From Eledone cirrhosa (lineage: Eukaryota): 64,000 nucleotides of DNA. Positions 1 through 21,100 of the stretch are shown here, one piece after another. The notes under the pieces are model-generated. The model saw only the letters and a list, made by a program, of their open reading frames with translations. It was not told the DNA's origin and did no database searches. Position 1 is the stretch's first letter. The number at the start of each line of letters is the position of its first letter. Position numbers and translations under genes: made by a program. The stretch covers positions 1 through 64,000 of the forward strand of contig OZ024751.1 in assembly GCA_964016885.1 (NCBI GenBank), given 5' to 3'.

Positions 1-318
1 ATAGTTTTGGTGACAAATACAGTGAAGGAGGCAGAGGATTTGATGTCGGAGGTTGAGACTGTGTTGATGAGTGTGGGGCTGAGAATGAATGAGACTAAAA
101 CAAAATATCTGGTAGAGAATGTTGAGAAGCCAGAGGGGATCACTCATGTAGGCGGGAAGCTGCTAGAATTGGTTGAGGACTTTCTGTATTTGGGAGCAAA
201 GATTGGGAATACGGAAGATGATGTGGTTGAGAGGAAGAGCAAAGCCTGGGCGGGCGGCGTGCCACAGCTTGAGGTCGGTGTGGAAGTCGGACCTTCGTAA
301 AGACCTGAAAATCCGCCT
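1..318 (+). mobile_element. Non-LTR retrotransposon RT fragment (RTE-like), frameshifted and truncated at (TA)n
   Basis: Translation gives GLRMNETKTK (RT motif 6) and VEDFLYLG (motif 7), then after a frameshift near 250 AACHSLRSVWKSDLRKDLKIRL, a typical RTE thumb start. It ends at the TA run. Confidence 0.8.
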
Positions 319-878
319 CATATATTTATATATATATATACATAAAACGATTTTGTTCTATGTGAAGAAACGCAACTACCAACACTGCTACTGCCACCAC
401 TCTCTCTATACACAAGAGTTAATTTTACAGTCTCCTTCTCAACAAGGAAGATGAAAAAACTTACCTCAACACTTAATTTTAAATCTTTAATTTTTAGTTT
501 TTAATCCTTATTAATTCTTTTTAATTGTAATACTTAACATTTGATAAGATGAACTTTACTAATACATTGAAACCGGTTATACTTTATATACATTATAAAA
601 CTCTTTTTTTAAAAGAATTGTCCCTCTCATTTTTTTCAATAATGCCACTTTGACGAATCAAAGAAAGGAAAAAAAAGAAAAACAGACCTTTAAATATATT
701 TTATATTTTCAGTGCTATTTACATTTTCATCCTCTCTCTCTATATATATATATATGTTGTATGATTGCTAGGATGTGTCCACAGACGGTATGCCGGTTGA
801 GCACTCTATGCTCCTTCGGAGCAGAGTATAATAAAATGGAAAACGAAGAATCAGTGATGCATTGGAACACAATTTATT

Positions 879-971
879 ACATATTACAATTGTTTCTCCG
901 GGGAACAGCTCGAGGTGCGATCTGTTTGTGGATCAAACCTGACTCTGGACTCGCAAGTTCCTCAGATACGT
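879..971 (-). ncRNA. Type I hammerhead ribozyme motif with long stem-II insertion
   Basis: Minus strand reads ACGTAT-CTGAGGA-(~62 nt)-GAAA-CAATTG-TA-ATATGT. Core is intact, stem I is 6 bp with one G-U, stem III is the palindrome ACAATTGT, and the triplet is GUA. The base of stem II pairs poorly. Confidence 0.6.
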
Positions 972-1479
972 CTAGTGATTTCAAAGCAAATTCTCTTTCT
1001 GCTGGGCTCCGACCCTTCAAATGTTTATCATCTGCCTTCATCCTGTTTGCGTGGCAATTAGATTGATTGATAGATTGTGACACCATCAAGTGTTTGACCA
1101 CTGAAATCTGCCCACTGGCCATCTCCATTCAGGCGTGAGCTGTCACTTACCCCAATCCCATCACAGAGGAAATGACAAAGGAATGCAGCGAGTGGAGAAA
1201 TGCTGAAAAGGACCCCTCCAACCTATGTGAGCATGGAGAAACGGATGTAAAATATATATATGATATATAAATATAATGTTTTATATACATATATAAAAAG
1301 AGAAAGGTAAAATTCAGACTGTGGTGCCAAGCGGTTTCAGCTTGTGTGTAACTGAAACCACTTGACACCGTGGTTGAGATTTTACCAAACTCTATACCCA
1401 CTCTGCATCTCCCCATGCATTGAGTACTCCCATGATTAGTGGTCTCCCCAGTCTCAGCACCACAGACTCTCTATAAAAA

Positions 1480-2226
1480 TTAGGGAGAAGAAAAATTTGG
1501 TATATTTTATCTGACTGTTCTTCAAACTTACAATCTTATATAGCTCTGATTAATAATTATTTGCTTAATTAATTTTTTCATTGAGCCACACCGTGAAAGG
1601 TAGCCACACTCATATATGTATCTGTGACTATGTCTAAATATATACATATATATCCATATGAATTTATTCTATACTCCCGTTCGGTCGAGTAAACCTTAGG
1701 CGGTATTTAACTGTTCCTTCTAGCAGCCAACCTACCTGCCATTCACAACCTTCTACTTTGACCGCTGGCCACGTGATAATTCTTACCCATTTTGAATTCA
1801 TTTCTGGCAGCGATCACTGTGGAAATTTTAGTCCTAACTGAGGGGTCTCTTGAGAAGCTAGAAACTTCATGGATTATACCAGGATTGGACATATCCACAA
1901 AGTACGAGCGAAACTATCGATAGTTGGGACTAGAAGAATTTTGGTAAAGTCTATATACATTTTTTCTTCAAACTTACATTTTAGACCTAGCTCCGTTTAA
2001 TTGATTATTTGTCTAGTTAATTTCTACGGGCTAAGAAGAACGACTGGGTAAATTTTTTCTGATTGTTCTTTTCGGGGGATAGTCTGTGTCATTTATCTGT
2101 TATTTCTTTGAAGTTACATTTTAAACTTAGTTCTGCTTAAATGATTATTTATCTAGTTAATTTCTACGGACTAGGGGAAAGAAAAATTGGGTATATTTTA
2201 TCTGACTGTTCTTCAAACTTACAATT
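1480..2226 (+). mobile_element. Short element with ~50-bp direct terminal repeat and internal decayed hammerhead-like motif
   Basis: GGTATATTTTATCTGACTGTTCTTCAAACTTACAAT occurs at ~1499-1534 and ~2190-2225. Between them lies TTAGTCCTAA-CTGAGGG...GAAACTATCGATAGTT-GGGACTAG (1829-1932). Confidence 0.45.
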
Positions 2227-2306
2227 TTATATATATATGTACTGTATGGAAATAGAATATGAAATTAGGGTGTATGTGTGTGTGTATAAATATGTATAAA
2301 TGGGTA

Positions 2307-2634
2307 AAGACCCCCTTCGGTCCAGAGTGACCATGGGATTTGCACAAAGAAAGTTCCCAATCAAGGCGCAAGACCAGGCAAGGTTGTTTGTAGAAGACCA
2401 ACAGTTCTCCCATTCATACCAGTCTTCACTCGTCATGCCATTGTTGTAGTTCAAGGAAAAGGCAAAGGTCAATACAACTTGGCACCAGTGTCATCACAAT
2501 TCATTTCTACAGCTGAGTAAACTGGAGCAGCGTGAAATAAAGTGTCTTGCTCAATGCGGCACCCAGTCCAAGAATCAAACTCAGAAACTCACAATTGTGC
2601 ATCCAATGCACTAACCACACAGCCACACACCTCC
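2307..2634 (-). mobile_element. tRNA-derived SINE with CORE-like central domain, decayed
   Basis: Shares the block CATTTCTACAGCTGAGTAAACTGGAGCA..TGAAATAAAGTGTCTTGCTCAA with the copies at 8421 and 16121. tRNA-like head lies at the right end, and the tail differs from those copies. Confidence 0.75.
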
Positions 2635-3156
2635 ACAGCAACACACCCCTATATATATTTTTTTTCCTAATTTTATTATTACTAATCTACAATGAATGTG
2701 TTCTTTCTTCTCTCCTCAATAATTTCAATGGAATTCATTTTTTAACACAATATCTTACTTTTTTCTTTCTTTACCTTCTTTTTTTACTGAGACTATCGTT
2801 GCTATAAAAAGTACAATACCTTCTCCTAAGTCACCACATAAAATTATATGTGTACCTGTTAAGGCTTAGTTGGTATAAGTTTTTGTTCTGTCTTGTCTTT
2901 TACTCCAAGGACAGTGGTTAGGTTTGTGTCAACTGCTGTGGCTCCAGATGGACTAGCAGTAATGTCGGTAGGGGTTGAAACTGCCAGAAAGTTCATCTCA
3001 ACAGCTTAAGATCTTGGAGTTCAGTGTTTTTCAAAAAAATTTTATTAAGGTTTCCCCTTCAAAAATGTTTTTTTCCGCTTTGCCTTGTTTTCATTTGTTG
3101 ACCTCTCTTTGTTTATTTCATGATGTTATCATATATATATATACATAATATATTTA

Positions 3157-3268
3157 TTATTAGCACAGATTGAAAGTTTAAGCAAACAATTTCTGATTTC
3201 ACCCTAACAATCGCGATTTAGGGTGAAAGCAGAAATTGTTTGCATAAACTTTTAATCTGGGCTAATAG
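3157..3268. repeat. Fold-back hairpin (MITE-like), ~50-bp arms
   Basis: TATTAGCACAGATTGAAAGTTTAAGCAAACAATTTCTGATTTCACCCTAA is followed after a ~10-nt loop by its near reverse complement. Confidence 0.8.
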
Positions 3269-3402
3269 CAAATATTTGCTCTACGGGTTTATATATATAT
3301 AGTAAGATCGATCGACTTTCGTCAAATCGGACCGAGGAAACAATGTTTTCGTCGGTCTTTCCAGTTGCTAGTACTATCTATCGGTCGCAACCCCAGGTAG
3401 AA

Positions 3403-3522
3403 GGAGCAACATGAAATAAAGTGTCTTGCTCAAGGACATAACGCATCACCCGGTCCAGAAATCGAACTCACAGCCTCAAGATTGTGAATCCAATTCTCTA
3501 ACCACTCAGCCATGCGCCTTCA
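3403..3522 (-). mobile_element. 5' part of tRNA-derived CORE-like SINE
   Basis: Reverse complement gives GGCTGAGTGGTTAGA (A box), GAGTTCGATT (B box) and GTCCTTGAGCAAGACACTTTATTTCA. Confidence 0.75.
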
Positions 3523-3527
3523 CATAT

Positions 3528-3707
3528 ATAGGAAAATGTATGACCCCGACGGCAGAGTTCAAGCCGTTTTCATCCAGAAATAGCCGTTGAAACGGCTTGA
3601 GCTCTGCCGTCGGTGTCATACATTTTCCTATTACCCACTCTACTACCCTAAGTATTTAGTACTCTGGTGCGTTATGGTCAATCTGGTTCCTTACCACAAC
3701 TCTTTCG

Positions 3708-3710
<3 letters not shown>
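3528..3710 (+). mobile_element. Short element with 5' inverted arm and the 3' half of a hammerhead; family copy at 8919-9128 (-)
   Basis: Hairpin at 3528-3631. It contains GAAA-CGGCT-TGAGCTC-TGCCG-TC. The tail TTACCCACTCTACTACCCTAAGTATT...GGTTCCTTACCACA matches the reverse complement of 8930-8995. TA-rich sequence flanks both ends. Confidence 0.7.
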
Positions 3711-3755
<45 letters not shown>

Positions 3756-3778
3756 GTATATATATATGTATATATATA

Positions 3779-4318
3779 TGTCTCATTCTGTTGGACCTTG
3801 CCTGAAGTTACTCATAAAGTCGTCTCAATAAGCAGTGTTTTAAACTCCTATTTATGCCAGTCTAGAAGTCAAATTCTCCATTTTCTTCTCGGATTTTCAA
3901 ATATTATTTTACATGTTTTTAATAATGTCTCTTTCTGTTGGACTCTTCCTAAAAACTAACCTTCTAGTATTATTATTAATTAATTATTCTCGAACCTTCC
4001 TGCATCTCGCTCGCAAACTTTGTAAACACTTTTCTCCTTCTCTCATACCCCCACCACCCGCCTGATCGCAAGTATAAAATAAAACCTTGCTGGTTACCAA
4101 GGACAGAATTTACCTATCGAATCTATCTTATGGGTGATCTGTCGATTTTGAGAATGTAAGCAATGCTTGTCTTTTTTATCCGTAGTGTTTTAAACTCCTA
4201 TTTATGCCAGTCTAAAATTCAAATTCTCCGTTTTCCTCTCGGATTTTCAATTATTATTTTACATGTTTTTAATAATATGTCTCATTCTGTTGGACCCTTA
4301 CTAAAAACTAACCTTCTC
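3779..4318. repeat. Partial tandem duplication, period ~350 bp
   Basis: 3834-3965 matches 4183-4316 (AGTGTTTTAAACTCCTATTTATGCCAGTCTA...CTAAAAACTAACCTTCT). TGTCTCATTCTGTTGGAC occurs three times with minor variation. Confidence 0.8.
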
Positions 4319-4344
4319 CTAAAATTATGCTAATGCACAAATAA

Positions 4345-7300
4345 CCGACAAATAACCGACAGCGACTACTTAATTATTGCTGGCGATCTAAACTGTCACG
4401 TTGGACAATATAGTGATGGCTATGATGGAATCCATGAAGGCTATGGGGATGGAAATAGAAATGAAGAGGGCTTCAGAATCCTGGAATTCTGTGACGCAAA
4501 TAGTCTAACTATCTGTAACACAAACTTCAAAAAGCGTGAAAACCACTTGATCACCTATAGATCAGGGGAACACGCCAGCCAGATAGATTATATCCTTACT
4601 AGAAGACGGGACAAAGTGTCTGTTGTAAACACTAAATCCCTCCCCCTTGAAGAATGAACCTCCCAACATAGTCTAGTAGTTAGTGACCTCATAGTCAGGA
4701 ATAGACGTACTCGACGACAGAGGAGGCCTACCTTGGGGAGAAGAATATGGAAGTTGAAGGACCCCATGGCCAGTGACAAATTTAAAAGCTTATTACTTGA
4801 TGCCTTTGACAATAAGGAAGAGCAATTAGAGACATGCAATATAGAGGAACAGTGGCAATTCTTGAAAGTGAACCTGCTGAGAGCAACGGATGAAATCTAT
4901 GGCTGGAGCAGACCTATTGGCAGGAGGAGAGTAACTTGGTGGTGGAACAGTAAGGTGGAAGAGACAATCAAGGCCAAGAAGCAGACTTGGAAAGTATGGC
5001 AGGATGGGGGAAGTAAAGAGCACTATCAAGTGGCCAGGAGAGTAGCTAGGAGACAAGTGCACCTTGCAAAAAGGGAAGCAGAGGATAGAAAGTTCAAGCA
5101 TGTTCTACAACGTGTGGACCAAAAACGTGAAGTGTTCAGGATTGCTAGACAATGCGTCAAGGAAAACCGTGATATTGTCGGGGAGAAGTGTGTCCGTAAT
5201 GATAACGGTGTACTTACCCCCACTGATACTGATAAGAAGATAGCCTGGAAGTGTCACTACGAGAGACTATTAAATGAGGAGAATAAATGGGAAAAAGATA
5301 GTCTGCCCCAAATCGATCCAATAGAAGGACCAGCGGTACAAGTTAAAGGTAGTATAATAAGTAAGGCAATCAAAGATATGAAGACAGGCAAGGCAGCTGG
5401 GCCTTCGGAGATAGTTGCTGAGATGTTGAAGGCATCTGGTATGGTGGGACACACTCTGATCACCCATATAGTTAACCAAGTGATACAGAATGGGGTCATA
5501 CCGAAAGTCTGGCGTAGCAGCAGCATCATTAACTGCTACAAGGGTAAAGGGGATGCTCTAGATAGGGGTAACTATAGAGGATTTAAGTTAGTTGACCAAG
5601 TCATGAAGATCACAGAAAGAGTTATAGCGCAATAATCAGAGAACGAATTGATCTAGATGAAATGCAGTTTGGGTTTGTGTCAGGTAAAAGTACCACAGAC
5701 GCTCTTTTCCTTGTACAACAACTACAAGAAAAGTACCTAGCTAAAAGTAAACCCCTCTACTTAGCTTTTGTAGACCTGGAGAAAGCCTTTGACAGAGACC
5801 CCTGCTCCATTATCTGGTGGGCTCTTAGAAAAGTAGGTGTAGATTAATGGTTTGTGAGAGCTATACAAGCTATGTATAATTAAACAGTCAGTAAGGTTAA
5901 AATTAACAATGAATATTGTGAAGAATTTAGTGTAAAACTTGGCGTTCATCAAGGCTCTGTCCTTAGCCCCCTCCTATTTATTATTGCCCTTCAGGCTATA
6001 ACAGAGGAGTTCAAGACCGGCTGCCCATGGGAACTCCTATACGCAGATGATCTAACGCTCATAGCTGAATCAATGGCTGAACTAGAGAAGAAATTCCAAA
6101 CATGGAAGCATGGACTAGAATCAAAAGGCCTTAAAGTTAACTTGTCTAAGACTAAAGTTCTAGTTTGTAGAAAGGAAAATAGGGCACAGGTGCCCTCAGG
6201 GAAATGGCCATGCTCAGTGTGTAGGAAAGGAGTAGGCAGAAATTCCATTTTATGTCCCAAATGCAAAGTATGGGTACATAAAAGATGTAGTTGGATCACA
6301 GGTAAACTATCTAAGAACGTAGACTTTATATGTGGCCAATGCTCAGGTGCAATAAGTAGCAAGTGTCCACAGGATACTAGCTCCTTCTATTGCCCAGATG
6401 GTTCTATAGAAATAGTAGACACTTTCCGTTACCTGGGTAACGAAATCAGCAGTGGTGGAGGGTGTTCTGAAAGTACAGTAGCCAGAGTCAGAACGGGATG
6501 GAAAAAGTTCAGAGAGCTTATACCACTATTGGCCGCTAAAAGGTTCTCTCTAAAAATGAAAGGCAGGCTGTATGATGCCTGCATACGAACGGCAATGTTA
6601 CATGGCAGTGAGACTTGGGCATTGTGTGCAAAGGATATACGCAGACTGGAGAGGAACAAAGCTTGCATGCTCCGTTGGATGTGTAATAGTAATATACGTG
6701 AACGGCAAAGCATAAATGAACTAAGGGAGAAGTTAGGAATAAGAGGGATCAGATGTTGTTTACTCGAGAGAAGACTACGTTGGTATGGTCACATGATGCG
6801 CATGAAAGACGACAGCTGTATAAAAAAGTGCAGGGCGATAAAAATAGACGGTAGCCACGGAGTAGGCAGACCCAGAAAAACCTGGGACGACTTGATAAAT
6901 TCTGACCTCACACACTTACACCTCTCCAAGACAATGTCACTGGACCAAGATCTTTGGCGCTACACAGTAATACAAAGGACCCGCCTTGCCTAAGTACAAA
7001 GTGAAACCTACAGTCAGTAGGCACCTCTTAACAAAAATACACCCCCGTCCCACTACCCCCACCCCATCCACACCACCCCTTTCGATGTAAAGTTATGTTG
7101 GTACCACAACATCCAGTCAGAAATAAATGAGGTCGTGTAGGTGTCACGACAAAAAAACACACAGTCCACGCTGTAATGTGGCCGTGTAGGTAACACGGTA
7201 AAAACCTCTCAATCCACACTGTAAACGTGGTTGGTGTTAGGAAGGGCATCCAGCCGTAGAAAACCCACCAGACAGTCCTGTGCGAGCAAGACAACCAATC

Positions 7301-7370
7301 TTGCCTCAAGTGGGAAAATTCCCGTCCAAACCCATGCAAGCGTGGAAGATGGACGTTAAATGATGATGAT
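4345..7370 (+). mobile_element. RTE-clade LINE, 5'-truncated and inactivated (APE endonuclease C-half, RT with inserted PHD-like finger, 3'UTR, (ATG)n tail)
   Basis: Shows LIIAGDLNCHVG and SQIDYIL (APE), [70 protein letters not shown] and GRPRKTW. Stops at ~4656, 5845 and 5881 and a frameshift at ~5632. Tail is ATGATGATGAT. Confidence 0.95.
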
Positions 7371-7377
7371 TATATAT

Positions 7378-7546
7378 ATCATCATCAACATTTAACGTCC
7401 GTGTTCCACGCTTGCATGGGTTTGGACGGGAATTTCCCCACTTGAGGCAAGATTGGTTGTCTTGCTCGCACAGGACTGCCTCGCGGGTTTTTCTACAGCT
7501 GGATGCCCTCCCTAACACCAACCACATTTACAGTGTGGGGCTGGGA

Positions 7547-7548
<2 letters not shown>
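7378..7548 (-). mobile_element. RTE 3'-end fragment, tail-to-tail with the preceding LINE
   Basis: Reverse complement of ~7215-7370, separated from it only by a short TA run. Confidence 0.85.
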
Positions 7549-7574
<26 letters not shown>

Positions 7575-7581
<7 letters not shown>

Positions 7582-8307
7582 CAAATAACGAAACGAAATT
7601 AAATTTCGTTTCGCTTCTAACTCACTTTTGTATGACTGACGCTTAAACAATTAAGTTAAAGTGTACATCTACATATGTATACGGAAGTATTAGTATGCAT
7701 ATAAATACACACATGCATACATATGTACATGTACTCAGCTTTTCACTAGACACTTTACAGTGAGTGTCAGCTAGTCTGTATGTAACCACACAGGCGGACC
7801 GGGTTTTAGAGTCATACGAGTTTTCAAGGAAACACATTTCCTCTATTCTCCAGAGGGCCAGACAGGAATATTGGACTAGTTTCGATGTTATTACATCTCA
7901 TCAGCAATATTTACCCATCTTCCGGCTTCTCTGGAGAATTGTAAAAGCACATATCGTTATATGCTTTTTCTATGAAAATTAGTAGTGGGTAGACCAATTT
8001 GCATAGAACGTGAGTCATTGTACGCACCGGTTCAGCGGAAACGATAAAAACAAATAACGAAACGAAATTAAATTTCGTTTCGCTTCTAACTCACTTTTGT
8101 ATGACTGACGCTTAAACAATTAAGTTAAAGTGTACATCTACATATGTATACGGAAGTATTAGTATGCATATAAATACACACATGCATACATATGTACATG
8201 TACTCAGCTTTTCACTAGACACTTTACAGTGAGTGTCAGCTAGTCTGTATGTAACCACATAGGCGGACCGGGTTTTAGAGTCATACGAGTTTTCAAGGAA
8301 ACACATT
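7575..8307 (-). mobile_element. Hammerhead-containing partial tandem element (469-bp monomer, ~1.56 copies) inserted in (TA)n
   Basis: 7575-7838 and 8044-8307 are near-identical 264-bp direct repeats (one mismatch seen). The hammerhead lies in the spacer, and (TA)n flanks both sides. Confidence 0.8.
7867..7911 (-). ncRNA. Minimal type I hammerhead ribozyme, fully canonical
   Basis: Minus strand reads AATATTG-CTGATGA-GATGT-AATA-ACATC-GAAA-CTAG-TC-CAATATT. Stem I is 7 bp, the core is perfect, stem II is 5 bp with a G-C base, stem III is the palindrome ACTAGT, and the cleavage triplet is GUC. Confidence 0.92.
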
Positions 8308-8310
8308 AAC

Positions 8311-8756
<446 letters not shown>

Positions 8757-8836
8757 TACGTTATTCCGGGTTGAATCGGAGGTAACCACAGTAAGTAAGG
8801 TACTCAATACATTGCAGAGTATAAAAGTTTTAATAT

Positions 8837-8897
8837 AGATGAGATTCCTGATGATTTCTAAAGAATGAAACAGTTCTAGTCCTGTAGAATCTCATCT
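8837..8897 (+). ncRNA. Type I hammerhead ribozyme motif
   Basis: AGATGAGATTC-CTGATGA-T-TTC-TAAA-GAA-T-GAAA-CAG-TTCTAGTC-CTG-TA-GAATCTCATCT. Stem I is a perfect 11 bp, the core is intact, stem III is 4 bp and the triplet is GUA. Stem II is short with a U-U closing pair. Confidence 0.85.
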
Positions 8898-8918
8898 CTC
8901 TCTATATATATATATATA

Positions 8919-9128
8919 ACGAAGGAAATGTGGTAAGGAACCAGGTGGACCATAACGCACCAAAGTACTCAATACTTAGGGTAGTAGAGTGGGTAATAGG
9001 AACGAGTAGGACCCTGACGGCTGAGCTCGAGCCGTTTCGACGGCTAATTCTGGACTAAAATGATTTTAGTCCAGAATTAGCCGTCGAAACGGCTTGAGCT
9101 CAGCCGTCGGGGTTCTACTCGTTCCTAT
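8919..9128 (-). mobile_element. Second copy of the fold-back half-hammerhead element
   Basis: ~65-bp-arm hairpin at 8996-9128 whose arms carry GAAA-CGGCT-..-AGCCG-TC. Homologous to 3528-3710 in the opposite orientation, with (TA)n flanks. Confidence 0.7.
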
Positions 9129-9182
9129 ATATTTATATATATATATGTGTATATATATAGATATATATGTATATATATATAT

Positions 9183-9596
9183 ATATTGTTATACTTGGGG
9201 AGGGTCATATTGTTGTAATAATATTGCCAGAAATAATAACAGAACACACTCACTGTTTGGTTGGTTTTCGCTTCTGTATCTTTTATATCTCCACAGTGTT
9301 TATCATTGTCTACGCTATACAATACAATACAACAGGAGGAACATAATAGTACCACTGATGATGTTGCAGATGTGCAATGAAAGAACTTTGTTAGACTATA
9401 TATATGTGTTTATATCTATATTATATCTGTATTTTTTACTGTTGGTCAGTCAATGATAAACATTGAGGACCAAATGAATTAACTGTGGAGATATAAAAGA
9501 TACAGAAGCGAAAACCAACCAAACAGTCAGTGTGTTCTGTTATTATTTCTGGCAATATTATTACAACAATATGACCCTCCCCAAGTATAACAATAT
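9183..9596. repeat. ~114-bp inverted repeat enclosing a hammerhead-like motif
   Basis: 9183-9297 is the reverse complement of 9482-9596. The spacer contains ATAGT-ACCA-CTGATGA-TG-TTGCA-GATG-TGCAA-T-GAAA-GAAC-TT-TGTT-AG-ACTAT (9346-9399). Confidence 0.8.
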
Positions 9597-9674
9597 TTGT
9601 TTTGACACGATTTCATATCAAAAACCTTGCAAAAGAAATATATATATATATGTATATATATACATATATATACA

Positions 9675-10330
9675 AATATTTGCAATGCGAACACATGTAT
9701 ACTTGTCATTTGCAATGCGAACACATGTATACTTGTATCAGTGTTTATCCCTATCATATATTCATTTGTATTAAACAGCTCGGAAATATTCCTCTCTTTG
9801 AGCTATTTAATTGTAAAAGACTATTTTAAGTTTATAACTCTATATATAATATTCTCGGCTCCATACGTAGAGCTAATTTTTAGTCCCATAAAACCGGCTG
9901 CTATTTTTAGCGGCACGAGTATGGGATGAGCTAGACGCTGTGACACATGTGGGTTTAACAACACATTTCTCTCAGTCTTCTTAAGTATTTTGAAGTGAAA
10001 CTTACCAATTTCTGGATACCCGCAGAAGAGCACAGGAATAGTAACTTTCACTTAATTGTTGCGAAACAAATTTAAAATTTGTCCGGGTATCACGGCCATT
10101 GCCAATATAGGTTTGTTTTTATTGATTTATTATTTTTAATCGAGACAGGCAAACCGTATTATTTTAATTAGTATTTTTCAATCTAGCTAACTTGGTCATT
10201 TGCAATGCGAACACATGTACACTTGTATCAGTGTTTATCCCTATCATATATTCATTTGTATTATACGGCTCGGAAATATTCCTTTCTTTGAGCTATTTAA
10301 TTGTAAAAGACTATTTTGAGTTTATAACTC

Positions 10331-10342
<12 letters not shown>
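9675..10342 (+). mobile_element. Hammerhead-containing partial tandem element (490-bp monomer, ~1.3 copies) bounded by TA repeats
   Basis: 9705-9852 matches 10195-10342 (offset 490). The hammerhead at 10015-10091 lies in the spacer. Confidence 0.75.
10015..10091 (+). ncRNA. Type I hammerhead ribozyme motif (U4A core variant)
   Basis: GATACCCG-CAGAAGA-GCACAG...TTGTTGC-GAAA-CAAATT-TAA-AATTTG-TC-CGGGTATC. Stem I is a perfect 8 bp, stem III is 7 bp, the triplet is GUC and stem II has a G-C base. Confidence 0.85.
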
Positions 10343-10400
<58 letters not shown>

Positions 10401-10573
10401 AAACATAAATTATCGAGATTCGCATTTCGGCCCACGAAATAACGAAAAACAACCTCCGAGATGTGAGGCAAGTGCTCAATGATTCAGATGAACCAGAGCT
10501 ATAATATATATATATATATATATTGAAAAAGTGAAGAATAACATGGTCAACAGTACAAAAAAGGGTTTTATTT

Positions 10574-10688
10574 ACAGTCTGACAATTGTTTCACTGATTA
10601 AGTTGTCTAAAAATTGCTGAACACTTGAAGCAGTGCCACTCAATTTTAAATACGTTGTTAGCGTAACCAGATCATCGGAGATAACTGT
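10574..10688 (-). ncRNA. Type I hammerhead motif with long stem-II extension (U4C variant)
   Basis: Minus strand reads ACAG-TTA-TCT-CCGATGA-T-CTGGTTA...TAATCAG-T-GAAA-CAATTG-TC-AGA-CTGT. Stem I is bulged, stem II has a 7-bp base, stem III is palindromic and the triplet is GUC. Confidence 0.72.
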
Positions 10689-11024
10689 TATATGTTCAGA
10701 ATTCAAATTACAGCATCATTAATAATATTAATAATAAAGATAGAAAGAGAAAAAAGAGAGATAAAGAGAAGAAAGAAAGAAAAAAAAAGAAAAAAGAAAG
10801 AAAAAGAAAAAGGAGAAAGGAAAACAGAAAAAGATATAGAGAAAAAAAGACAGAGAGAAAAGAGGATAGGTTCACTCTCAATCCTTTTGATTCCAACTGC
10901 TGTTTCCATGGCCAGAATTATATATATATATATTATATATATGAATATATGTATAGTATATTTGATAATATACTGTATGTTTAATTAAAAACATTTTGAA
11001 GACCATTTGCTATGTCACTTACTT

Positions 11025-11120
11025 ATTCTCGGCAAAAACAAAGGGGAGTAATCAACAGTCCTGTTTCTCGCTCGTTAATGGTTATCAAAACTACTCACCC
11101 CTTCGTTTCTGCCAAGAATT
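11025..11120. repeat. Short inverted repeat (MITE-like), ~25-bp arms
   Basis: ATTCTCGGCAAAAACAAAGGGGAGTA pairs with TACTCACCCCTTCGTTTCTGCCAAGAAT. Confidence 0.55.
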
Positions 11121-11187
11121 ATAGAAGCTGGATTCTTATAGAATCCTAGTAATGTTTAAGAGGTGATTAAACAGAGTCGTTGCTGGT

Positions 11188-11225
<38 letters not shown>

Positions 11226-11275
11226 CAACCCTTATTGAGTCCTCTCTGGATTTTGGTCTTTGTATTTATTATTAC

Positions 11276-11369
<94 letters not shown>

Positions 11370-11883
11370 TGTATTTTGGCTTGGTTTCTACAGCTAAATG
11401 CCCTTCCTTACTCCAACCATGTTACAGGGTGGACTCTCCAAATTCTTGATTACTTTCTAAGTTATTTGAAAGACTAGGCAGAGTCTTTCATTAGAAATAT
11501 TTTAATTAAAGGGCAAACAGATTGGGTGGGGTTAAACAACAACAATAAATATTACAACTGTCAGTTTTATCAAGTTGATGGTTTACATTTGACCTCTTTT
11601 ACACCAGATTACCCAGCATGCACTAGATGATTTCATTGTAAATATAAACAGCATAGAGTGAGACAGATGTTCTCTCACCTGAGTTGAGATGGTGTTAAAA
11701 TATATATATATAAATCAATAATAATTTTATGTTCTTATCAATGGTTTAAACCAATTTTCCCAAATATAATATTGATAATTTATCTTTATATCTAGAGAAA
11801 CATCATATTAATATGCTTCGTAGTTTGTAACATCTAAGACTGGTGTTAACGTTTTAACATTTACATTACACTATGTATAATAT

Positions 11884-12045
11884 AGGCGGCGAATTGGCTG
11901 AGTCATTAGAACGTCGGATAGAATGCTTTATGGTATTTGTTCCAGTTCTCTGCTCTTTGAGTTCAAATCCCACCGAGTTCAACTTTACCTTTCATCCTTT
12001 CGAGGTTGATAAAAAAAAGTACTAGTCTAGTACTGGGATCGATTC
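11884..12045 (+). mobile_element. tRNA-derived SINE (family 2), decayed
   Basis: TGGCTGAGTCATTAGA (A box), GAGTTCAAATCC (B box) and the conserved CCTTTCATCCTTTCGAGGTTGATAAA..AGTAC block shared with 13577 and 60825. Confidence 0.8.
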
Positions 12046-12386
12046 TTCCTCTATATCTCTCTCTCAGTTTCTATCTTTCTCTGGAAGAAATCTGCTGTAT
12101 TCAGGCCTGGAGAGGGATAGGCTTCACTAGGCTTAAAATGCACAAGAAAAGCTGTTGTCAATACAGCACCCTTACAACTCTATCAGGAGTTACAGGACCA
12201 TACATATATACTATTGTACTTTCGCAGAAAAAGCTTTATTTTACATAATTATCTTACATAATATCGAATCTATGAGATTTTAATATTATTTATTTTGAGA
12301 ACAATACATTAACATCAATACGAGCAGCCAATTACGGCCAGTTTGAACAGAAAGAGGTGAAAGAATTCGGGCCGGATATGGCTGGT

Positions 12387-12693
12387 TTGACCTTTTAGCA
12401 TTTGTATTTTTGTGGTAAAGGCTTTATCTCACATAATATCAAATCTATGAGATTTTGATATTATTTATTTTGAAAACAATACCTTAACATCAGTACGAGC
12501 TGCTGTGTCTGGCCAGAATTCTCTCACCTCTCTCTGTTCAAACAGGTTGTAACTAGCCACTCATACTGATGTTAAGGTATTCTTCTTAAAATAATAACAT
12601 CAAAATTTCATAGATCCGATATTATGACAGATAAAGCCTCTATTGCAAAAATACAATAGTATATATAGAGTGATGTAAATGCTAAAGGATTAA
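12387..12693. mobile_element. piggyBac-like MITE or fold-back with TTAA-type ends; adjacent partial copy at ~12225-12380
   Basis: Ends are TTGA-CCTTTTAGCATTT and AAATGCTAAAGGA-TTAA. Internal arms are inverted (12420-12500 vs 12555-12650). Confidence 0.55.
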
Positions 12694-13084
12694 CCCTTCC
12701 ATGACCATATTTCTAATGAAAAACATGGCCTGTGATTTCCAAATAATTTTGAAAACAATCAAGAATGTTTAGGTATTTAGTAATATTACAAAACACATTA
12801 TCAATCAGATGTTCGGAATATAGCTTAACAAAAGTTCATACACTCAATTATAACGGAAGGTTTTTAGATAAATATAAACACATGAAAATACACAGCTTTA
12901 CATAATAGAACCAGGGGTGTTTCAAGCAGTAATGATTTAGCAAAAAATATCTAAAAACTGTGTGTGATAACTCAAATGTTTATAGTATCTTTATTACTGG
13001 ACAGATTTCTGTGAAAAAATACTGTATTAGTGTAAAGGCTTTCATTTTGAGTGTGAAGCAGTCATAGTGTTGTTTTTATACTTT

Positions 13085-13450
13085 TCAAGAATGTCTTGGT
13101 ATGGTCTGAATCTTGGATAATGACCAAAAGAATATGATCATGAATATAAGCAGCTGAAATGGGACTCTTTGAAGTAACGTTACTCGATAGATCAGAGAGT
13201 CACTCTAGATAGGGTCGCTATTTCACCAAATTGAGAGATCACAGCTCTGATACTATGGACATGTGGTTAGAATGTCTCAAGAAAGAATCACTGGACAGAT
13301 TTTATGGGCACAACCAACCGACAGGAGACCCAGGGGTAGAACCCGAACAAGGTGATTGGATAACATCCATGAGCTTGGCTGGTCTTGCTTGGGAATCCAG
13401 CCGGATTGGAGATGGTTGCTTCTGACAGGACCCACTAGAAGGAGTGTTTG
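13085..13450 (+). mobile_element. Old RTE-type LINE C-terminal fragment
   Basis: Decayed translation includes ESWIMTKR, AAEMG, IERSQL*YYGHVVRMSQERITGQILWAQPTDRRPRGRTRTR*LDNI. Confidence 0.8.
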
Positions 13451-13576
13451 AAGATTCACAATCCTCTCAGGAATAAGTGGGCAAAGAACTTTTGGTAATG
13501 TGGTTTCATGTCGTACAGGACATTAAGAGTTAAAGAGGCTAAACAATAAAAACAATAACATTATCTGTGATAACAA

Positions 13577-13759
13577 GCGGTGGATTGGCAGTATCGGTAG
13601 AGGGTCGGACGCAATGCTTTCCAGCATAGTTACGTCCCTTTACGATCTGAGTTCAAATCCCGCCGAGGTTGACTTTGCCTTTCATCCTTACGGGGTCGAT
13701 AAAATAAAGTACCAGTAATGCACTGGGTAATTGCTGGCCTTGTGCCTAAAGTAGAAACA
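13577..13759 (+). mobile_element. tRNA-derived SINE (family 2) with 17-bp target-site duplication
   Basis: Box A/B-like TGGCAGTATCGGTAGA and GAGTTCAAATCC. ATTATCTGTGATAACAA is duplicated at 13560-13576 and 13760-13776. Highly similar to 60825-61006. Confidence 0.9.
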
Positions 13760-14139
13760 ATTATCTGTGATAACAATAAGCAGCTTCTGTGATATAATAA
13801 AATATTTAATTGGTGCCAACCATGTGGGTGAACTGATAAAATATTTGATCTATCCTAATTTAGAGAAATGAAAAAAAAGATATATAGATATATATATATA
13901 GATATATATATATGACACACATCCAAACAATACAGCATGAAGACCACACACAGTTATGTGTGAGTGTGTGTGAGAGAGAGAGAGGGGGGAGTGCATGTGA
14001 TGGCATTATGTGATCTAGAACAAAGAGGCTAAACCATTGAGTAAAGAGAGAGAGTGGGTTATATATGTGTATATATATATATGTCTGTGTGTGTATACAT
14101 ATATACTATATATGTGTATATATATATATATATATATAA

Positions 14140-14349
14140 AGTGCCCAGCCCACCCTGTAAAGTGGTTGTGTAGGCGTCACGATAAAAAGCACCCAGTGCT
14201 CAGTGGTTGACGTTAGGAAGGGCATCCAGCTGCAGAAATTAAGCCAGAACCAGACCAGTATGGTCACCTGACCTAGGATTGCCGACAACAGGACAATCCG
14301 TCTAACCCATGCTAGCATGGAAATGGAGGTAAGACGGAGGTGATGATGA
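14140..14349 (+). mobile_element. RTE 3'UTR-type fragment
   Basis: GTTAGGAAGGGCATCCAGC...GTCTAACCCATGCTAGCATGGAA..GATGATGAT, flanked by TA repeats. Confidence 0.75.
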
Positions 14350-14418
14350 TATGTGTATATACACACAAATATGTATATTTATGAATATATATGTATATAT
14401 ATACACCATATGTGTATG

Positions 14419-14515
<97 letters not shown>

Positions 14516-14538
14516 GTGTGTGTATATATATATATATA

Positions 14539-16108
14539 TTTGACAGAGTCCCCCGCTCCATTATTTGGTGGACTCTTAGAAAACTAGGTGTAGATGAATG
14601 ACTTGTGAGAGCTATACAAGCTATGTATAATGAAACAGTCAGTACGGTTAGAATTAACAATGAATATTGTGAAGAATTTAGTGTAAAAGTTGACGTTCAT
14701 CAAGGTTCTGTCCTTAGCCCCCTCCTATTTATTATTGCCCTTCAGGCTATAACAGAGGAGTTCAAGACCGGCTGCCCATGGGAACTCCTAGACACAGATG
14801 ATCTAACACTCATAGCTGAATCTATGGCTGAACTAGAGAAGAAATTCCAAACATGGAAGCATGGCCTAGAATCAAAAGGCCTTAAAGTTAACTTGTCTAA
14901 GACTAAAGTTCTAGTTTGTAGAAAGGAAAATAGGGCACAGGTGCCCTCAGGGAAATGGCTATGCTCAGTGTGTAGGAAAGGAGTAGGCAGAAATTCCATT
15001 TTATGTCCTAAATGCAAAGTATGTGTACATAAAAGATGTAGTGGGAACACAGGTAAACTATCTAAGAACGTAGATTTTATATGTGGCCAATGCTCGGGTG
15101 CAATAATTAGTAAGTGTCCACAGGATACGAGCTCTTTCTATTGCCCAGATGGTTCTATAGAAATAGTAGACACTTTCCGTTACCTGGGTGACGAAATCAG
15201 CAGTGGTGGAGGGTGTTCTGAAAGCACGGTAGCCAGAGACAGAACGGGATGGAAAAAGTTCAGAGAGCTATACTGCTGTTGGCCACAAAAGGTTTCTCTC
15301 TAAAAATGAAAGGCAGACTGTATGATGCCTGTATACGAACAGCAATGCTACATGGCAGTGAGACATGGGCATTACGTGCAGAGGACCTGCGCAGACTGGA
15401 GAGGAACGAAGCTTGCATGCTCCGTTGGATGTGTAATAGTAATATACGTGAACACCAAAGTATAAATGAACTAAGTGAGAAATTAGGAATAAGAGGGATC
15501 AGATGCTGTTTACTTGAGAGAAGACTACGTTGGTATGGTCACATGATGCGCATGAAAGACGACAGCTGCATAAAAAAGTGCAAAGCGATCAAAATAGATG
15601 GTAGTTACGGAGTAGGCAGACCCAGAAAAACCTGGGATGATCTGATAAATTCCGACCCTACACACTTGCACCACTCTAAGACTAGACCGAGATCTTTGGC
15701 CCTACGCAGTAATACAGAAGACCCGCCTTGCCTATGTACAAAGCGAAACCTACAGTCAGTAGGCACCTCTTAACCAAATATACACCCCAATCCCCTACCC
15801 CTACCCTATCCTCCCACTCCCACCAATACCATGAGATAATGAGATGGAGATCGCGTAGCTGTCATGACAAAAAAACACACAGTCCACGCTGTAATGTGGT
15901 TGTGTAGGTAACACGGTAAAAAGTTGCCAGTTCCACACTGTAAATGTGGTTGGTGTAAGGAAGGGCATCCAGCCGTAGAAAACCTGCCAGATAGTCCTTA
16001 TATGAGCGAGACACGGTCACCCGACCAACCTTGCCTCAAGTGGGACAACTCACGTCTAACCCATGCTAGCGTGGAAGATGGACGTTAAACAATGATGATG
16101 ATGATGAT
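14539..16108 (+). mobile_element. RTE LINE copy 2 (same family as 4345-7370), 5'-truncated at the TA tract, inactivated
   Basis: Starts at FDRVP. YADD is mutated to DTDD, the PHD-like insert is present, there is a frameshift at ~15270, and it ends in an (ATG)n tail. Confidence 0.95.
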
Positions 16109-16120
16109 ATATGTATATAT

Positions 16121-16426
16121 ATCATTTCATTTTACGTCCGCTTTTTCCCTGCTTGCAAGGGTGGGACGGGAACTGATTCTTGCTTGATTTCTACAGCTGG
16201 ATGCCCTTCCTAACACCAACCTCATTTACAGTGAGTGCTGGGTGCTTTTTTGCCGTGGAATGATATGGACCCCAGGCCCTATCATCTCATTTCTACAGCT
16301 GAGTAAACTGGAGCAATGTGAAATAAAGTGTCTTGCTCAAGGAAACAACACCTCACCCGGTCTGAGAATTGAACTCACCTTTCGATTGCAAGGCCAATGC
16401 TCTAACCACTAAGCCATGTGCCTCCA
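16121..16426 (-). mobile_element. tRNA/CORE-like SINE with RTE tail, tail-to-tail with LINE copy 2
   Basis: Reverse complement closely matches 8421-8723. Confidence 0.88.
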
Positions 16427-16448
16427 TATATATGTGTGTATATATATA

Positions 16449-17301
16449 TCCTTCTTTCTTACATTTCGATTCATCTTGAAAGGTCTTTTTTCTACGCGCT
16501 CATATATTCACCCAGCTTATGCTGACAGAATAACTATGTAGCTTGTGCCCTTCCTATCTACGGTTAGTTTTCCTCTTTGTTGTTACTTGTCTCACTCGCT
16601 TTACGCATTTTAATTGTCCTAATAACTTAATTTAGTTATTATTGCACCAACGTGAGGTATATGGTTTTTAATGCAATGAAATATCAATGATCGTTGGCAA
16701 ATCACTGATGAGGGACTCATTTTATAACATGTTATCCATGTGCAACCTGCAGTATTCTTCTTCCCATTTTTTCACATATATTTACCTAAACTGCGATTCT
16801 GTTTTTCTCTCTCTCTCTCTAACTGCTCCCTCGTTCTCTCTGTTTCTCTTACTTTCTTTCGCCCCCTCTGTCATGTCAGTTAACACTTTCTCTCAACTGA
16901 CCTCTTCCTCACACTTCCACTCACTCACTCACTGTTTCTCCCCTTCTCACTTCACCCCGTTCGCGACAAAAACAATTTCCTTCTTTCTTACATTTGGATT
17001 CATCTCGAAAGGTCTTTTTTCTACGCGCTCATATATTCACCCAGCTTATGCTGACAGAATAACTATGTAGCTTGTGCCCTTCCTATCTACGGTTAGCTTT
17101 CCTCTTTGTTGTTACTTGTCTCACTCGCTTTACGCGTTTTAATTGTCCTAATAACTTAATTTAGTTATTATTGCACCAACGTGAGGTATATGATTTTTAA
17201 TGCAATGAAATATCTATGATCGTTGGCAAATCACTGATGAGGGACTCATTTTATAACATGTTATCCATGTGCAACCTGCAGTATTCTTCTCCCCATTTTT
17301 T

Positions 17302-17306
<5 letters not shown>
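16449..17306 (+). repeat. Partial tandem element (529-bp period, ~1.6 copies) bounded by TA repeats; carries CTGATGA but no GAAA half
   Basis: 16451-16778 matches 16980-17306 (paralogous ORF starts at 16687 and 17216). CACTGATGAGGGA is present in both copies. Confidence 0.8.
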
Positions 17307-17346
<40 letters not shown>

Positions 17347-17377
17347 ATATATATATATATGTGTGTGTATGTTACGC

Positions 17378-17862
17378 TGGTGCCACAAAACTTCCACTGT
17401 AAAGTGATCGTGTAGGTGTCATGACAAAAAGCACCCAGCACACATTGTAATGTGGTTGACACTAAGAAGGGTATCCAGCCATAGAAAACCAGCCAGAATC
17501 AATCCTATATGAGCGAGACACGGTTACCCGACCCAACTTGCCTCTAAATGGGACAAACCTGTCTAACCCATGCTAGCGTTGAAGATAGACATTAAATGAT
17601 GATGATGATGATATATATATATATAATAGATAGATTCCCAAAGGGGATCAGATGATTTCGTATGAATGAAACAGTTCCAATCCTGTAGAAGTCATTTCTA
17701 TATAAATAAACATAAATCATCATGATCATCATCGTTTAACGTCTATCTTCCACGTTAGCATGGGTTAGACGGAAATTGTCCCACTTAAGGCAAGATTGAT
17801 AGGGTGACCATGTCTCATTCGTATAGGACTGTATCTGGCAGGTTTTCTACGGCTGGATGCTC
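17378..17862. mobile_element. Two RTE 3'-end fragments tail-to-tail (17378-17612 +, 17717-17862 -) enclosing a decayed hammerhead copy
   Basis: (ATG)n and (CAT)n tails face each other. The spacer has CAGATGATTTCGTATGAATGAAACAGTTCCAATCCTGTAGAA, homologous to 8848-8889. Confidence 0.75.
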
Positions 17863-17944
17863 TATATTAGAAAATAAACAAGGCTGTTTTGTTTACATAT
17901 ATAAGATACTTTTTGTGTTTCGACCTGTTGCACACATTTTGCAG

Positions 17945-18160
17945 TGAATTGGCTGAAAGTTAACTTGACCAAGACTAATATCCTAGTAAGAAAGATGAGA
18001 GGAGTCTTAATTCCTTCGAGGAAATGGCCATGTCAATATGTAAAAACATAACTGGTAGAGACTCCATAGAGTGAACAAAATGTAAATTATGGGTATGCAA
18101 TAGATGTAGTGGGATTGTGGGTAGGCTGAGAAGAAATGTTGGTTATGTATGTGGTAGGTG
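17945..18160 (+). mobile_element. Old RTE LINE fragment (RT motif 6 plus PHD-like finger) running directly into the 13-bp satellite
   Basis: Translation gives LKVNLTKTNILV, KWPC, TKCKLWVCNRCSGIVGRLRRNVGYVCGRC. Confidence 0.85.
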
Positions 18161-21100
18161 TATATGGTAGGTGTATGTGGTAGGTGTATGTGGTAAGTGT
18201 ATGTGGTAGTAAATGTGGTAGGTGTATGTGGTAAGTCTATGTGGTAAGTGTATGTGGTAAGTATATGTGGTAAGTGTATGTGGTAGGTGTATGTGGTAAG
18301 TGTATGTGGTAGGTGTATGTGGTAAGTGTATGTGGTAGGTGTATGCGGTAAGTGTATGTGGTATGTGGTAGGTCTATGTGGTAGGTGTATGTTGTAGGTG
18401 TATGTGATAGGAGTATGTGGTAGGTGTATATGGTAAGTGTATGTGGTAGGGGTATGTGGTAGGTGTATATGGTAAGTGTATGTGGTAGGTATATGTGGTA
18501 GATGTATGTGGTAGGTGTATGTGGTAAGTGTATGTGGTAGGTGTATGTGGTAAGTGTATGTGGGAGGGGTATGTGGTAGGTGCATGTGGTAAGTGTATGT
18601 GGTAAGTGTATGTGGTAGGTGTATGTGGTAAGTGTATGCGGTAGGAGTATGTGTTACGTGTATGTGGTAAGTGTATGTGGTAAGTGTATGTGGTAAGTGT
18701 ATGTGGTAGGTGTATGTGGTAAGTGTATGTGGTAGGTGCATGTGGTAGGTGTATGTGGTAAGTGTATGTGGTAGGTGTATGTAGTAAGTGTATGTGGTAG
18801 GTGTATGTGGGAAGTGTATGTGGTTGGTGTATGTGGTAGGTGTATGTGGTAAGTGTATGTGGTAGGTGTATGTGGTAAGTGTATGTGGTAGGTGTATGTG
18901 GTAGGTGTATGTGGTAGGGGTATGTGGTAGGTGTATGTGGTAGGAGTATGTGGTAGGTGTATGTGGTAGGAGTATGTGGTAGGAGTATGTGGTAAGTGTA
19001 GGTGGTAGTGTATGTGGTAGGTGTAGGTGGTAGTGTATGTGGTAGGTGTATGTGGTAAGTGTATATGGTAGGTGTAGGTGTATGTGGTAAGTGTATGTGG
19101 TAAGTGTATGTGGTAGTGTATGTGGTAGGTGTATGTGGTAGGTGTATGTGGTAAGTGTATGTGGTAGATGTATGTGGTAGGTGTATGTGGTAAGCGTATG
19201 TGGTAGATGTATGTGGTAGGTGTATATGGTAGGTGTATGTGGTAGGTGTATGTGGTAAGTGTATGTGGTAGTAAATGTGGTAGGTGTATGTGGTAAGTCT
19301 ATGTGGTAAGTGTATGTGGTAAGTATATGTGGTAAGTGTATGTGGTAGGTGTATGTGGTATGTATGTGGTAGGTGTATGTGGTAAGTGTATGTGGTAGGT
19401 GTATGCGGTAAGTGTATGTGGTATGTGGTAGGTCTATGTGGTAGGTGTATGTTGTAGGTGTATGTGATAGGAGTATGTGGTAGGTGTATATGGTAAGTGT
19501 ATGTGGTAGGGGTATGTGGTAGGTGTATATGGTAAGTGTATGTGGTAGTAAATGTGGTAGGAATATGTGGTAGATGTATGTGGTAGGTGTATGTGGTAAG
19601 TGTATGTGGTAGGTGTATGTGGTAAGTGTATGTGGGAGGAGTATGTGGTAGGTGCATGTGGTAAGTGTATGTGGTAGGTGTATGTGGTAAGTGTATGCGG
19701 TAGGAGTATGTGGTACGTGCATGTGGTAAGTGTATGTGGTAAGTGTATGTGGTAAGTGTATGTGGTAGGTGTATGTGGTAAGTGTATGTGGTAAGTGTAT
19801 GTGGTAGGTGTATGTGGTAGGTGTATGTGGTAAGTGTATGTGGTAGGTGTATGTAGTAAGTGTATGTGGTAGGTGTATGTGGGAAGTGTATGTGGTTGGT
19901 GTATGTGGTAGGTGTATGTGGTAGGTGTATGTGGTAGGTGTATGTGGTAGGTGTATGTGGTAGGTGTATGTGGTAGGTGTATGTGGTAGGTGTATGTGGT
20001 AGGTGTATGTGGTAGGAGTATGTGGTAGGAGTATGTGGTACGTGCATGTGGTAAGTGTATGTGGTAAGTGTATGTGGTAAGTGTATGTGGTAGGTGTATG
20101 TGGTAAGTGTATGTGGTAAGTGTATGTGGTAGGTGTATGTGGTAGGAGTATGTGGTAGGAGTATGTGGTACGTGCATGTGGTAAGTGTATGTGGTAAGTG
20201 TATGTGGTAAGTGTATGTGGTAGGTGTATGTGGTAAGTGTATGTGGTAAGTGTATGTGGTAGGTGTATGTGGTAGTGTATGTGGTAGGTGTATGTGGTAG
20301 GTGTATGTGGTAGGAGTATGTGGTAGATGTATGTGGTAGGTGTAGGTGGTAGGTGTATGTGGTAGGTGTATGTGGTAGGTGTATGTGGTAGGTGTATGTG
20401 GTAAGTATATGTGGTAAGTGTGTGTGGTAGGTGTATGTGGTAAGTATATGTGGTAGGTGTATGTGGTAGGTGTATGTGGTAGGTGTATGTGGTAAGTGTA
20501 TGTGGTAGGTGTATGTGGTAGGTGTATGTGGTAAGTGTATGTGGTAAGTGTATGTGGTAAGTGTATGTGGTAGGTGTATGTGGTAAGTGTATGTGGTAGG
20601 TGTATGTGGTAGGTGTATGTGGTAAGTGTAGGTGGTAGGTGTATGTGGTAGGTGTATATGGTAAGTGTATGAGGTAGGTGTATGTGGTAGGTGTATGTGG
20701 TAGGTGTATGTGGTAAGTGTATGTGGTAAGTGTATGTGGTAGGTGTATGTGGTAGGTGTATGTGGTAGGTGTATGTGGTAAGTGTATGTGGTAGGTGTAT
20801 GTGGTAGGTGTATGTGGTAAGTGTATGTGGTAGGTGTATGTGGTAAGTGTATGTGGTAGGTGTATGTGGTAAGTGTATGTGGTAGGTGTAGGTGGTAGGT
20901 GTATGTGGTAGGTGTATGTAGTAGGTGTATGTGGTAGATGTATGTGGTAGGTGTAGGTGGTAGGTGTATGTGGTAGGTGTATGTGGTAGGTGTATGTGGT
21001 AGGTGTATGTGGTAGGTGTATGTGGTAAGTGTATGTGGTAGGTGTATGTGGTAGTTGTATGTGGTAACTGTATGTGGTAGGTGTATGTGGTAGGTGTATG

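Follow-up and report, generated by a model that had tools for sequence, protein, structure and literature searches.

A probable Penelope-type retrozyme insertion of 733 bases with a canonical hammerhead ribozyme in Eledone cirrhosa, and a possible RNA circle as its template

A 733-base insertion flanked by TA tracts in the genome of Eledone cirrhosa (assembly GCA_964016885.1, contig OZ024751.1) is interpreted here, with a probability of roughly 0.9, as a retrozyme, that is, a non-autonomous element of the Penelope type. It lies in a window of 64,000 nucleotides (positions 1 to 64,000 of the forward strand), which is the whole stretch of DNA analysed, and constitutes a new member of the metazoan non-LTR retrozymes, a class of non-autonomous Penelope-like elements that is already known. 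The insertion is longer than one unit of the element, and for this excess length the reading preferred here, with a likelihood just short of even, is that a reverse transcriptase (RT) copied more than once around a circular RNA template of a predicted 469 nt.

The class and the circle model have both been published, and the finding is in this sense no surprise. Reverse transcription around a circle has been a working model since 2014, when the discussion of PMC4209133 put it forward almost as the first-pass annotation of this DNA words it, and it was set out again in PMC7229834 and PMC7761336; in the passages of these papers drawn upon here, the circle as the template of more-than-unit-length cDNA is presented as a model and not as a result. 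No description of such a family was found in the literature on octopus and cephalopod retrozymes, hammerheads and Penelope elements, the supplement of PMC7229834 lying outside this search. The excerpted text of the giant squid genome paper merely counts 235 hammerhead hits, and ribozymes in octopus are not mentioned in the excerpts of PMC13282606 and PMC10886601. What the locus offers is an apparently young, many-copy family with a likely fixed RT start and a ribozyme at a known distance from it, in which the circle question is answerable by counting ends. If the insertion is indeed a fossil of copying around a circle, the copies of the family would form a genome-scale record that decides, from their ends and from within-insert identity, between a circular and a linear origin of the partial tandems typical of Penelope elements.

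Self-comparison of the window identified two direct repeats of 264 nt each (7575-7838 and 8044-8307), which are identical at 263 of 264 positions, recur with a period of 469 and differ solely at 7791 (C) and its counterpart 8260 (T). The length of the insertion corresponds to 1.56 units (733/469), and the near-identical 264-bp repeats and 1.56 copies of a 469-bp monomer described in a first-pass annotation of this DNA were thus reproduced. The same annotation regarded the insertion as young, which is plausible, yet this age estimate rests on a single private mismatch in 264 nt. A spacer of 205 bp separates the repeats and bears a complete type I hammerhead on its minus strand (Table 1). The full monomer would be the first-made copy if RT began at the 7575 end, and the truncated second copy stops 35 nt before the position of the next hammerhead cut site. 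The longest ATG frame in the element covers 64 aa, with a start codon that is altered (7836) in the majority sequence of a public sequencing run (X1, described below), and no Pfam family was found at the cut-off in the two element frames scanned. A promoter scan with bacterial models yielded no promoter. Elsewhere in the window, no second copy of the monomer was found.

Table 1. Features of the insertion, its ribozyme and its junctions (positions in the window).
Feature	Positions	Strand	Remarks
Left flank, (AT)14	7549..7576	.	last 2-3 bases coincide with the element end
Full 469-nt monomer	7575..8043	-	37% GC, non-coding
13-bp hairpin followed by U-rich tail	7587..7615	-	12 nt from the element 3' end; second copy at 8056-8084
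Long stem with the hammerhead at its tip	7845..7939	-	-37.5 kcal/mol, z -4.8
Canonical type I hammerhead	7860..7920	-	core with C3 at 7904; predicted cut 7874|7873
Second copy, 5'-truncated, 264 nt	8044..8307	-	upstream on the RNA strand; partial tandem / pseudo-LTR
15-nt inverted copy (14/15) of 8119-8133	8301..8315	+	5' junction
Right flank, (AT)54	8314..8421	.	begins after 6 non-TA bases

The canonical hammerhead that had been noticed in the spacer was confirmed, with consensus residues at 11 of the 11 invariant core positions and with the G10.1-C11.1 pair present. The cut triplet is GUC, with C17 at 7874, and cleavage is predicted between 7874 and 7873. Helix I comprises 6-7 bp and extends beyond an internal loop into a distal helix; helix II may be drawn with 4 bp and a 6-nt loop or with 5 bp and a 4-nt loop, and helix III consists only of a 6-nt palindrome at 7880-7875 (2 bp and a 2-nt palindromic loop). 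Chance occurrence was assessed with a custom descriptor, for which dinucleotide shuffles of the monomer and shuffles of positions 1-18145 of the window served as the null; the descriptor was passed by none of 2000 of the former and none of 200 of the latter. The Rfam model HH9 matched the hammerhead of the insertion with 31.8 bits (E 6.4e-6), which is under the gathering score of 52, and no Rfam hammerhead reached the gathering level in the window. Sub-threshold matches to Rfam microRNAs were rejected as low-complexity hairpins. A 22-mer of the hammerhead had 0 matches in metagenome and viral contigs, while the matches of a 22-mer from the 3' end at four metagenome loci were attributed to chance, since only 23-27 bases agree and the flanks are unrelated.

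The motif had also been labelled 'minimal', a term that is wrong under the definitions of PMC4209133. There, the 'minimal' hammerheads of Penelope-like elements (PLEs) have no helix III, an extra base between A9 and 10.1 and an enlarged helix II; in the insertion, helix III is present, there is no bulge between A9 and 10.1, and helix I carries its internal loop and distal part, so that the motif corresponds to the canonical metazoan type I hammerhead of the same authors.

With the metazoan non-LTR retrozymes (PMC7229834; bioRxiv 10.64898/2026.07.22.740005) the insertion shares a non-coding unit in head-to-tail arrangement, a GC content below 50%, a canonical type I hammerhead, a circular fold computed to be strongly self-paired and the lack of LTRs, PBS and PPT. 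Its 469-nt unit exceeds the range of 150-450 bp given in PMC7229834 and falls within the 51-972 bp of bioRxiv 10.64898/2026.07.22.740005. The latter source handles metazoan retrozymes and the Penelope-like insertion pattern as one thing, and under its two-unit rule for an 'active' retrozyme the present locus, which has one ribozyme, is not active. Likewise, in the endonuclease-bearing Penelope-like elements (PMC8557442, PMC3846280, PMC11167929, PMC4209133) a 5'-truncated copy stands upstream of a full copy and the target is (TA)n with a hidden duplication. Further similarities to Penelope-like elements are the short inverted 5' junction, which occurs here in miniature only (15 nt, 14/15; PMC3846280), a hammerhead distant from the RT start and a hint of a fixed internal 3' end. 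The insertion differs from them in having neither an RT nor a GIY-YIG frame and in carrying a canonical hammerhead instead of the minimal PLE variant; a GIY-YIG-like motif was absent from the six frames of the window. The non-autonomous Chlamys elements such as MRC1 are similar in being short PLE derivatives that form pseudo-LTRs and head-to-tail multimers and that were once mistaken for LTR elements, but they belong to green algae and are mostly devoid of canonical hammerheads (PMC8557442).

Any target-site duplication of the insertion is masked by the TA microsatellite in which it is embedded. The first-pass annotation had reported pure (TA)n on both sides. This is exact on the left, where the tract overlaps the first 2 bases of the repeat, an overlap that possibly represents priming microhomology; on the right, 6 non-TA bases (8308-8313) precede the tract, and these are accounted for as part of the 15-nt inverted copy of an internal segment (Table 1). 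The 14/15 inverted match was reached in 0 of 5000 shuffles, and the 8 added bases of the junction alone were found in 234 of 5000. The inverted copy looks like an abortive short fold-back of the self-priming kind; inverted 5' junctions with overlaps or palindromes of 15-18 bp are typical of Penelope elements and have been interpreted as self-priming (PMC3846280). At the other end of the insertion, the U-rich tail that follows the 3' hairpin on the RNA strand continues into the TA tract. The DNA cut by the Penelope RT is AT-rich, and synthesis begins at a stem-loop within the RNA of the element (PMC11167929); by analogy the 3' hairpin is a candidate RT start signal. The 30-40-bp tail that is optional in Penelope-like elements was not seen here.

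Folded as a circle, the 469-nt monomer has a computed energy of -154.7 kcal/mol with 69% of its bases paired (z -10 against 60 shuffles). The plus strand of the long stem folds too (z -4.3, against -4.8 for the minus strand), and since fold energy does not decide between the strands, the strand is assigned by the catalytic core. Common variants of the family at 7855, 7856 and 7933 preserve or add minus-strand pairs in this stem. Helix III has a pairing probability of 0.0 within the folded monomer circle; closing it costs about 6 kcal/mol, whereas two open monomers that join in a double hammerhead gain about 5 (-19.4 vs 2 x -7.2), and the lowest-energy two-strand cofold is a plain duplex (-33.2) and not the double hammerhead. 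The earlier suggestion that such hammerheads act mainly as dimers is borne out computationally, helix III being predicted to be too weak in the monomer and able to pair between two copies. A lone hammerhead would, on these models, be unable to form helix III and would leave a circle or a read-through RNA uncut. In its weak palindromic helix III the motif is similar to the dimer-dependent hammerhead of axolotl and newt. Most invertebrate hammerhead motifs cleave as monomers while the amphibian ones require dimers (PMC7761336), and the motif of the insertion, as predicted from its sequence, resembles the amphibian rather than most of the invertebrate ones.

The following course of events may be envisaged for the preferred reading. 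Multimeric source loci elsewhere would be transcribed on the minus strand, and pairs of hammerheads in the transcript would complete helix III mutually and then cut. The 469-nt monomer would be ligated to a circle, whose stability would follow from the inability of a single hammerhead to build helix III. The (TA)n target would be nicked by an endonuclease of the Penelope type. RT would start at 7575, a fixed position within the unit that lies directly beyond the 3' hairpin and 299 nt away from the cut site; it would read through the ribozyme site, pass its own start, i.e. the head-to-tail junction, and stop after 733 nt; the cDNA would then fold back by about 8 nt and join the TA target. The full form of the proposal is a decidedly tentative one: the insertion would directly record, as a fossil, how a retrozyme RNA circle was reverse transcribed, and the abundant, TA-targeting family to which it belongs would have one fixed RT start inside the unit, 299 nt away from the ribozyme cut. 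The locus has one ribozyme and therefore cannot release a circle or a monomer itself, which makes it a product with a source elsewhere. Moreover, the insertion spans both the cut site and the junction, and thus a linear monomer running from cut to cut cannot template it without a jump, whereas a ligated circle or an uncut multimer can.

The occurrence of the family was examined in public sequencing runs. Among the 24 runs listed by the search, 20 shared some sequence with the stretch, and in 5 half or more of its words were present; no RNA run was among those listed, which has no bearing on expression. Four of the 24 (X1, X4, X5 and X22) were compared with positions 7700-8168, which represent one unit with both element ends inside, and runs with small shares were left aside. 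The monomer was matched by 945 contigs of X1, 90 contigs of X5 and one contig of X4, and the raw Hi-C run X22, with 0 reads, is uninformative. The element belongs to a polymorphic, probably high-copy repeat family, for which the summed X1 contig depths of 1e4 to 6.6e5 are not copy numbers and the depth step at 8044 is confounded by branching. A duplication unique to this locus had been named beforehand as evidence against copying around a circle; the junction and the TA-flanked end recur in other runs.

The X4 contig covers the 8043|8044 head-to-tail junction, and the listed variants of the family include no indel at this point at the 3% level. The contig is 499 nt long (469 + 30), its ends overlap, and it forms a closed cycle at depth 2.4. 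In a simulation that assumes 31-mers to be kept from depth 2, this cycle fits one molecule of about 2.5 units (minimum 2, mean 2.39) and not one locus of 1.56 units; simulated short reads seldom yield a closed cycle at depth 2.2-2.6 (at most 1.5% for a circle, 0.2% for dispersed copies). The closed contig suggests multimers or circles, between which it does not distinguish. In one X5 contig, (TA)n stands immediately before 8044, the equivalent of 7575. Contig starts fall at 8044 in 3 of the 17 listed and at 7768 in 5 of the 17, where the clustering is caused by an indel, and no loose end at 7838 was seen among 12 of 45. A fixed 3' end at 8044 (= 7575) is suggested by two TA-flanked observations; instead of the variable circular permutation that the first-pass annotation had proposed to look for, the contig data hint at one fixed end. 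The depth of one X5 variant is equal inside the repeat and across its edge (137.4 at 8044-8129 and 137.3 at 7768-7920).

None of the 20 family variants listed falls at the 11 invariant core positions. A predicted pair is lost in four of the 20, where 9.2 such losses would be expected (P 0.004), a comparison in which the variants are linked in subfamilies and the fold is that of the insertion copy; with row 7849 left out (19 rows), 3 breaks compare with 8.5 expected (P 0.0016). The conservation of the core and the structure-keeping variants show selection on the RNA fold. An abundant X5 subfamily has 18 differences in 154 nt at 7768-7920, and these include the dominant changes of that run, namely C17 to U, at 137 of a depth of 207, and the loss of a pair in helix II, at 137 of 168; a weakened ribozyme seems compatible with abundance in X5. 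The insertion copy differs from the X1 majority at 12 sites, of which the 6 within the repeat are all common to both repeats, a pattern consistent with a second pass of RT over one template unit or with a homogenised array. In a contig of X1 with depth 18.6, position 8155 is joined, with 5 additional letters, to 8056 at the foot of the 3' hairpin, a step back of 99 nt. Four contigs of X1 agree with the monomer on the ribozyme side and depart from it at 7864, where they continue, downstream on the RNA strand, into a dissimilar sequence that contains a U run and an AUG and is possibly a sister family or the start of the autonomous partner; if the circle fossil is real, these contigs, diverging just past the ribozyme, would lead to that partner.

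The model of RT running around a circle, as first proposed for this locus, holds in so far as the insertion is a retroelement copy of more than one unit, is not an LTR element and is not a one-off; the circle itself is not singled out, a linear multimer being nearly as likely. By analogy, the circle fits with related retrozymes that are mostly circular (those of coral, mussel and axolotl accumulate as RNA circles; PMC7229834), with the conserved fold and with a lone ribozyme that would spare the circle. Against it, the closed cycle in X4 and the even depth arise equally from tandem DNA, and the 8155 to 8056 partial tandem is inexplicable by any circle. The junction reads at the cut site that had been recommended as a check are uninformative, because ligation restores the genomic sequence and a circle thus equals uncut linear RNA in reads.

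In the linear alternative, the same family and the same Penelope-type machinery would have copied an uncut or partly cut read-through RNA of a multimer or a partial tandem; the duplication would be an ordinary PLE pseudo-LTR, and the hammerhead a passenger or active at another step. Partial tandems are universal in Penelope-like elements, with a hammerhead or not, and in the Naiads partial tandems in (TA)n are the rule although canonical hammerheads are lacking (PMC8557442). Ribozyme mutants of the anole Penelope insert equally well, uncut RNA being the main template in vitro (PMC11167929), and only 1 of 9 Xenopus retrozyme dimers was cleaved in vitro (bioRxiv 10.64898/2026.07.22.740005). A lone weak hammerhead would leave read-through RNA whole, the variant with the weakened ribozyme is dominant in X5, and the 5' end falls 35 nt short of the next cut site, as if RT had almost reached the end of an RNA with a single upstream cut, a proximity (35 of 469 positions) that is not significant alone. 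However, copying partial tandems keeps or shortens them, and multimeric sources must therefore exist; the selection on the RNA fold described above and the mainly circular state of related animal retrozymes in vivo (PMC7229834) also count against a linear template.

An improbable third route is a template jump, in which RT completed a linear monomer and then continued, by a jump or by renewed priming, at the 3' start site of that RNA or of another one. The X1 contig in which 8155 is joined to 8056, beside the 3' end and with its extra letters, shows that short partial tandems arise through a jump or a local duplication, and the fold-back at 8301-8315 shows that this RT or repair system switches templates. 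Independent jumps, however, should vary the joints, and the junction at the locus is the common junction of the family, free of listed indels at the level given above.

Plant LTR retrozymes (PMC7761336) are also non-coding and hammerhead-bearing, with a circle-based model of spread, but their hammerheads are of type III and lie inside true LTRs accompanied by PBS, PPT and 4-bp duplications, none of which is present in the insertion. That the insertion is a small LTR element (a TRIM or a plant-type LTR retrozyme) with the 264-bp repeats as its LTRs is the least credible of the readings weighed here. On the minus strand the 3' repeat does begin with TG after a purine-rich run, and a TG is found at 8305 in the 5' repeat. 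The purine run, however, forms one arm of the stem that bears the ribozyme, the TG at 7836-7835 is altered in 79% of the X1 depth, the repeats end in TTTTAT and not in CA, and no TGG primer site follows either of them, by which this reading is largely refuted; the hammerhead, moreover, is of type I and lies between the repeats rather than inside them.

A local tandem duplication, an assembly artefact or a Helitron-like element with a chance hammerhead is similarly a very remote explanation. The window is rich in satellites, and a hairpin close to the 3' end is reminiscent of rolling-circle DNA elements. Against these, the junction is present in the independent run X4, contigs of the two other runs match the monomer in the numbers given above, and the hammerhead is beyond chance with an unvaried core.

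Around the insertion, TA tracts are crowded with other elements. Another type I hammerhead, unrelated to the first, occurs at 8837-8897 (plus strand) in a TA-flanked piece at about 8755-8900, with an 11-bp helix I, a 4-bp helix III, a U.U at the base of its 3-bp helix II and GUA as the cut triplet (predicted cut after 8886); its matches to the 469-nt monomer do not exceed 9 nt, and none of the Rfam hammerhead models matches it up to E 1. A 66-nt inverted repeat at 8996-9128 lies between TA tracts and looks like a Penelope-type 5' inversion. Its arms contain the GAAA, helix III and GUC of a half-hammerhead without CUGANGA, one arm extends by about 75 nt, and a 25-nt stretch is 76% like the piece at 8797. 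Near-perfect inverted repeats are also found at 9183-9596 (115-nt arms, 184-nt spacer) and 7260-7491 (116-nt arms, no spacer). A tRNA-like head at 8421-8478 (plus strand; Rfam tRNA, 35.3 bits), which starts at the end of the right TA tract, is probably a SINE. Two broken copies of an endonuclease-RT LINE, with a PHD-like finger after the RT domain, lie at 4334-6993 and 14602-15773 (plus strand). Most of the window is occupied by three long satellite arrays at 18146-25052, 26789-41985 and 43681-60657, with units of 13, 69 and 61 bp, respectively, and a strong strand skew.
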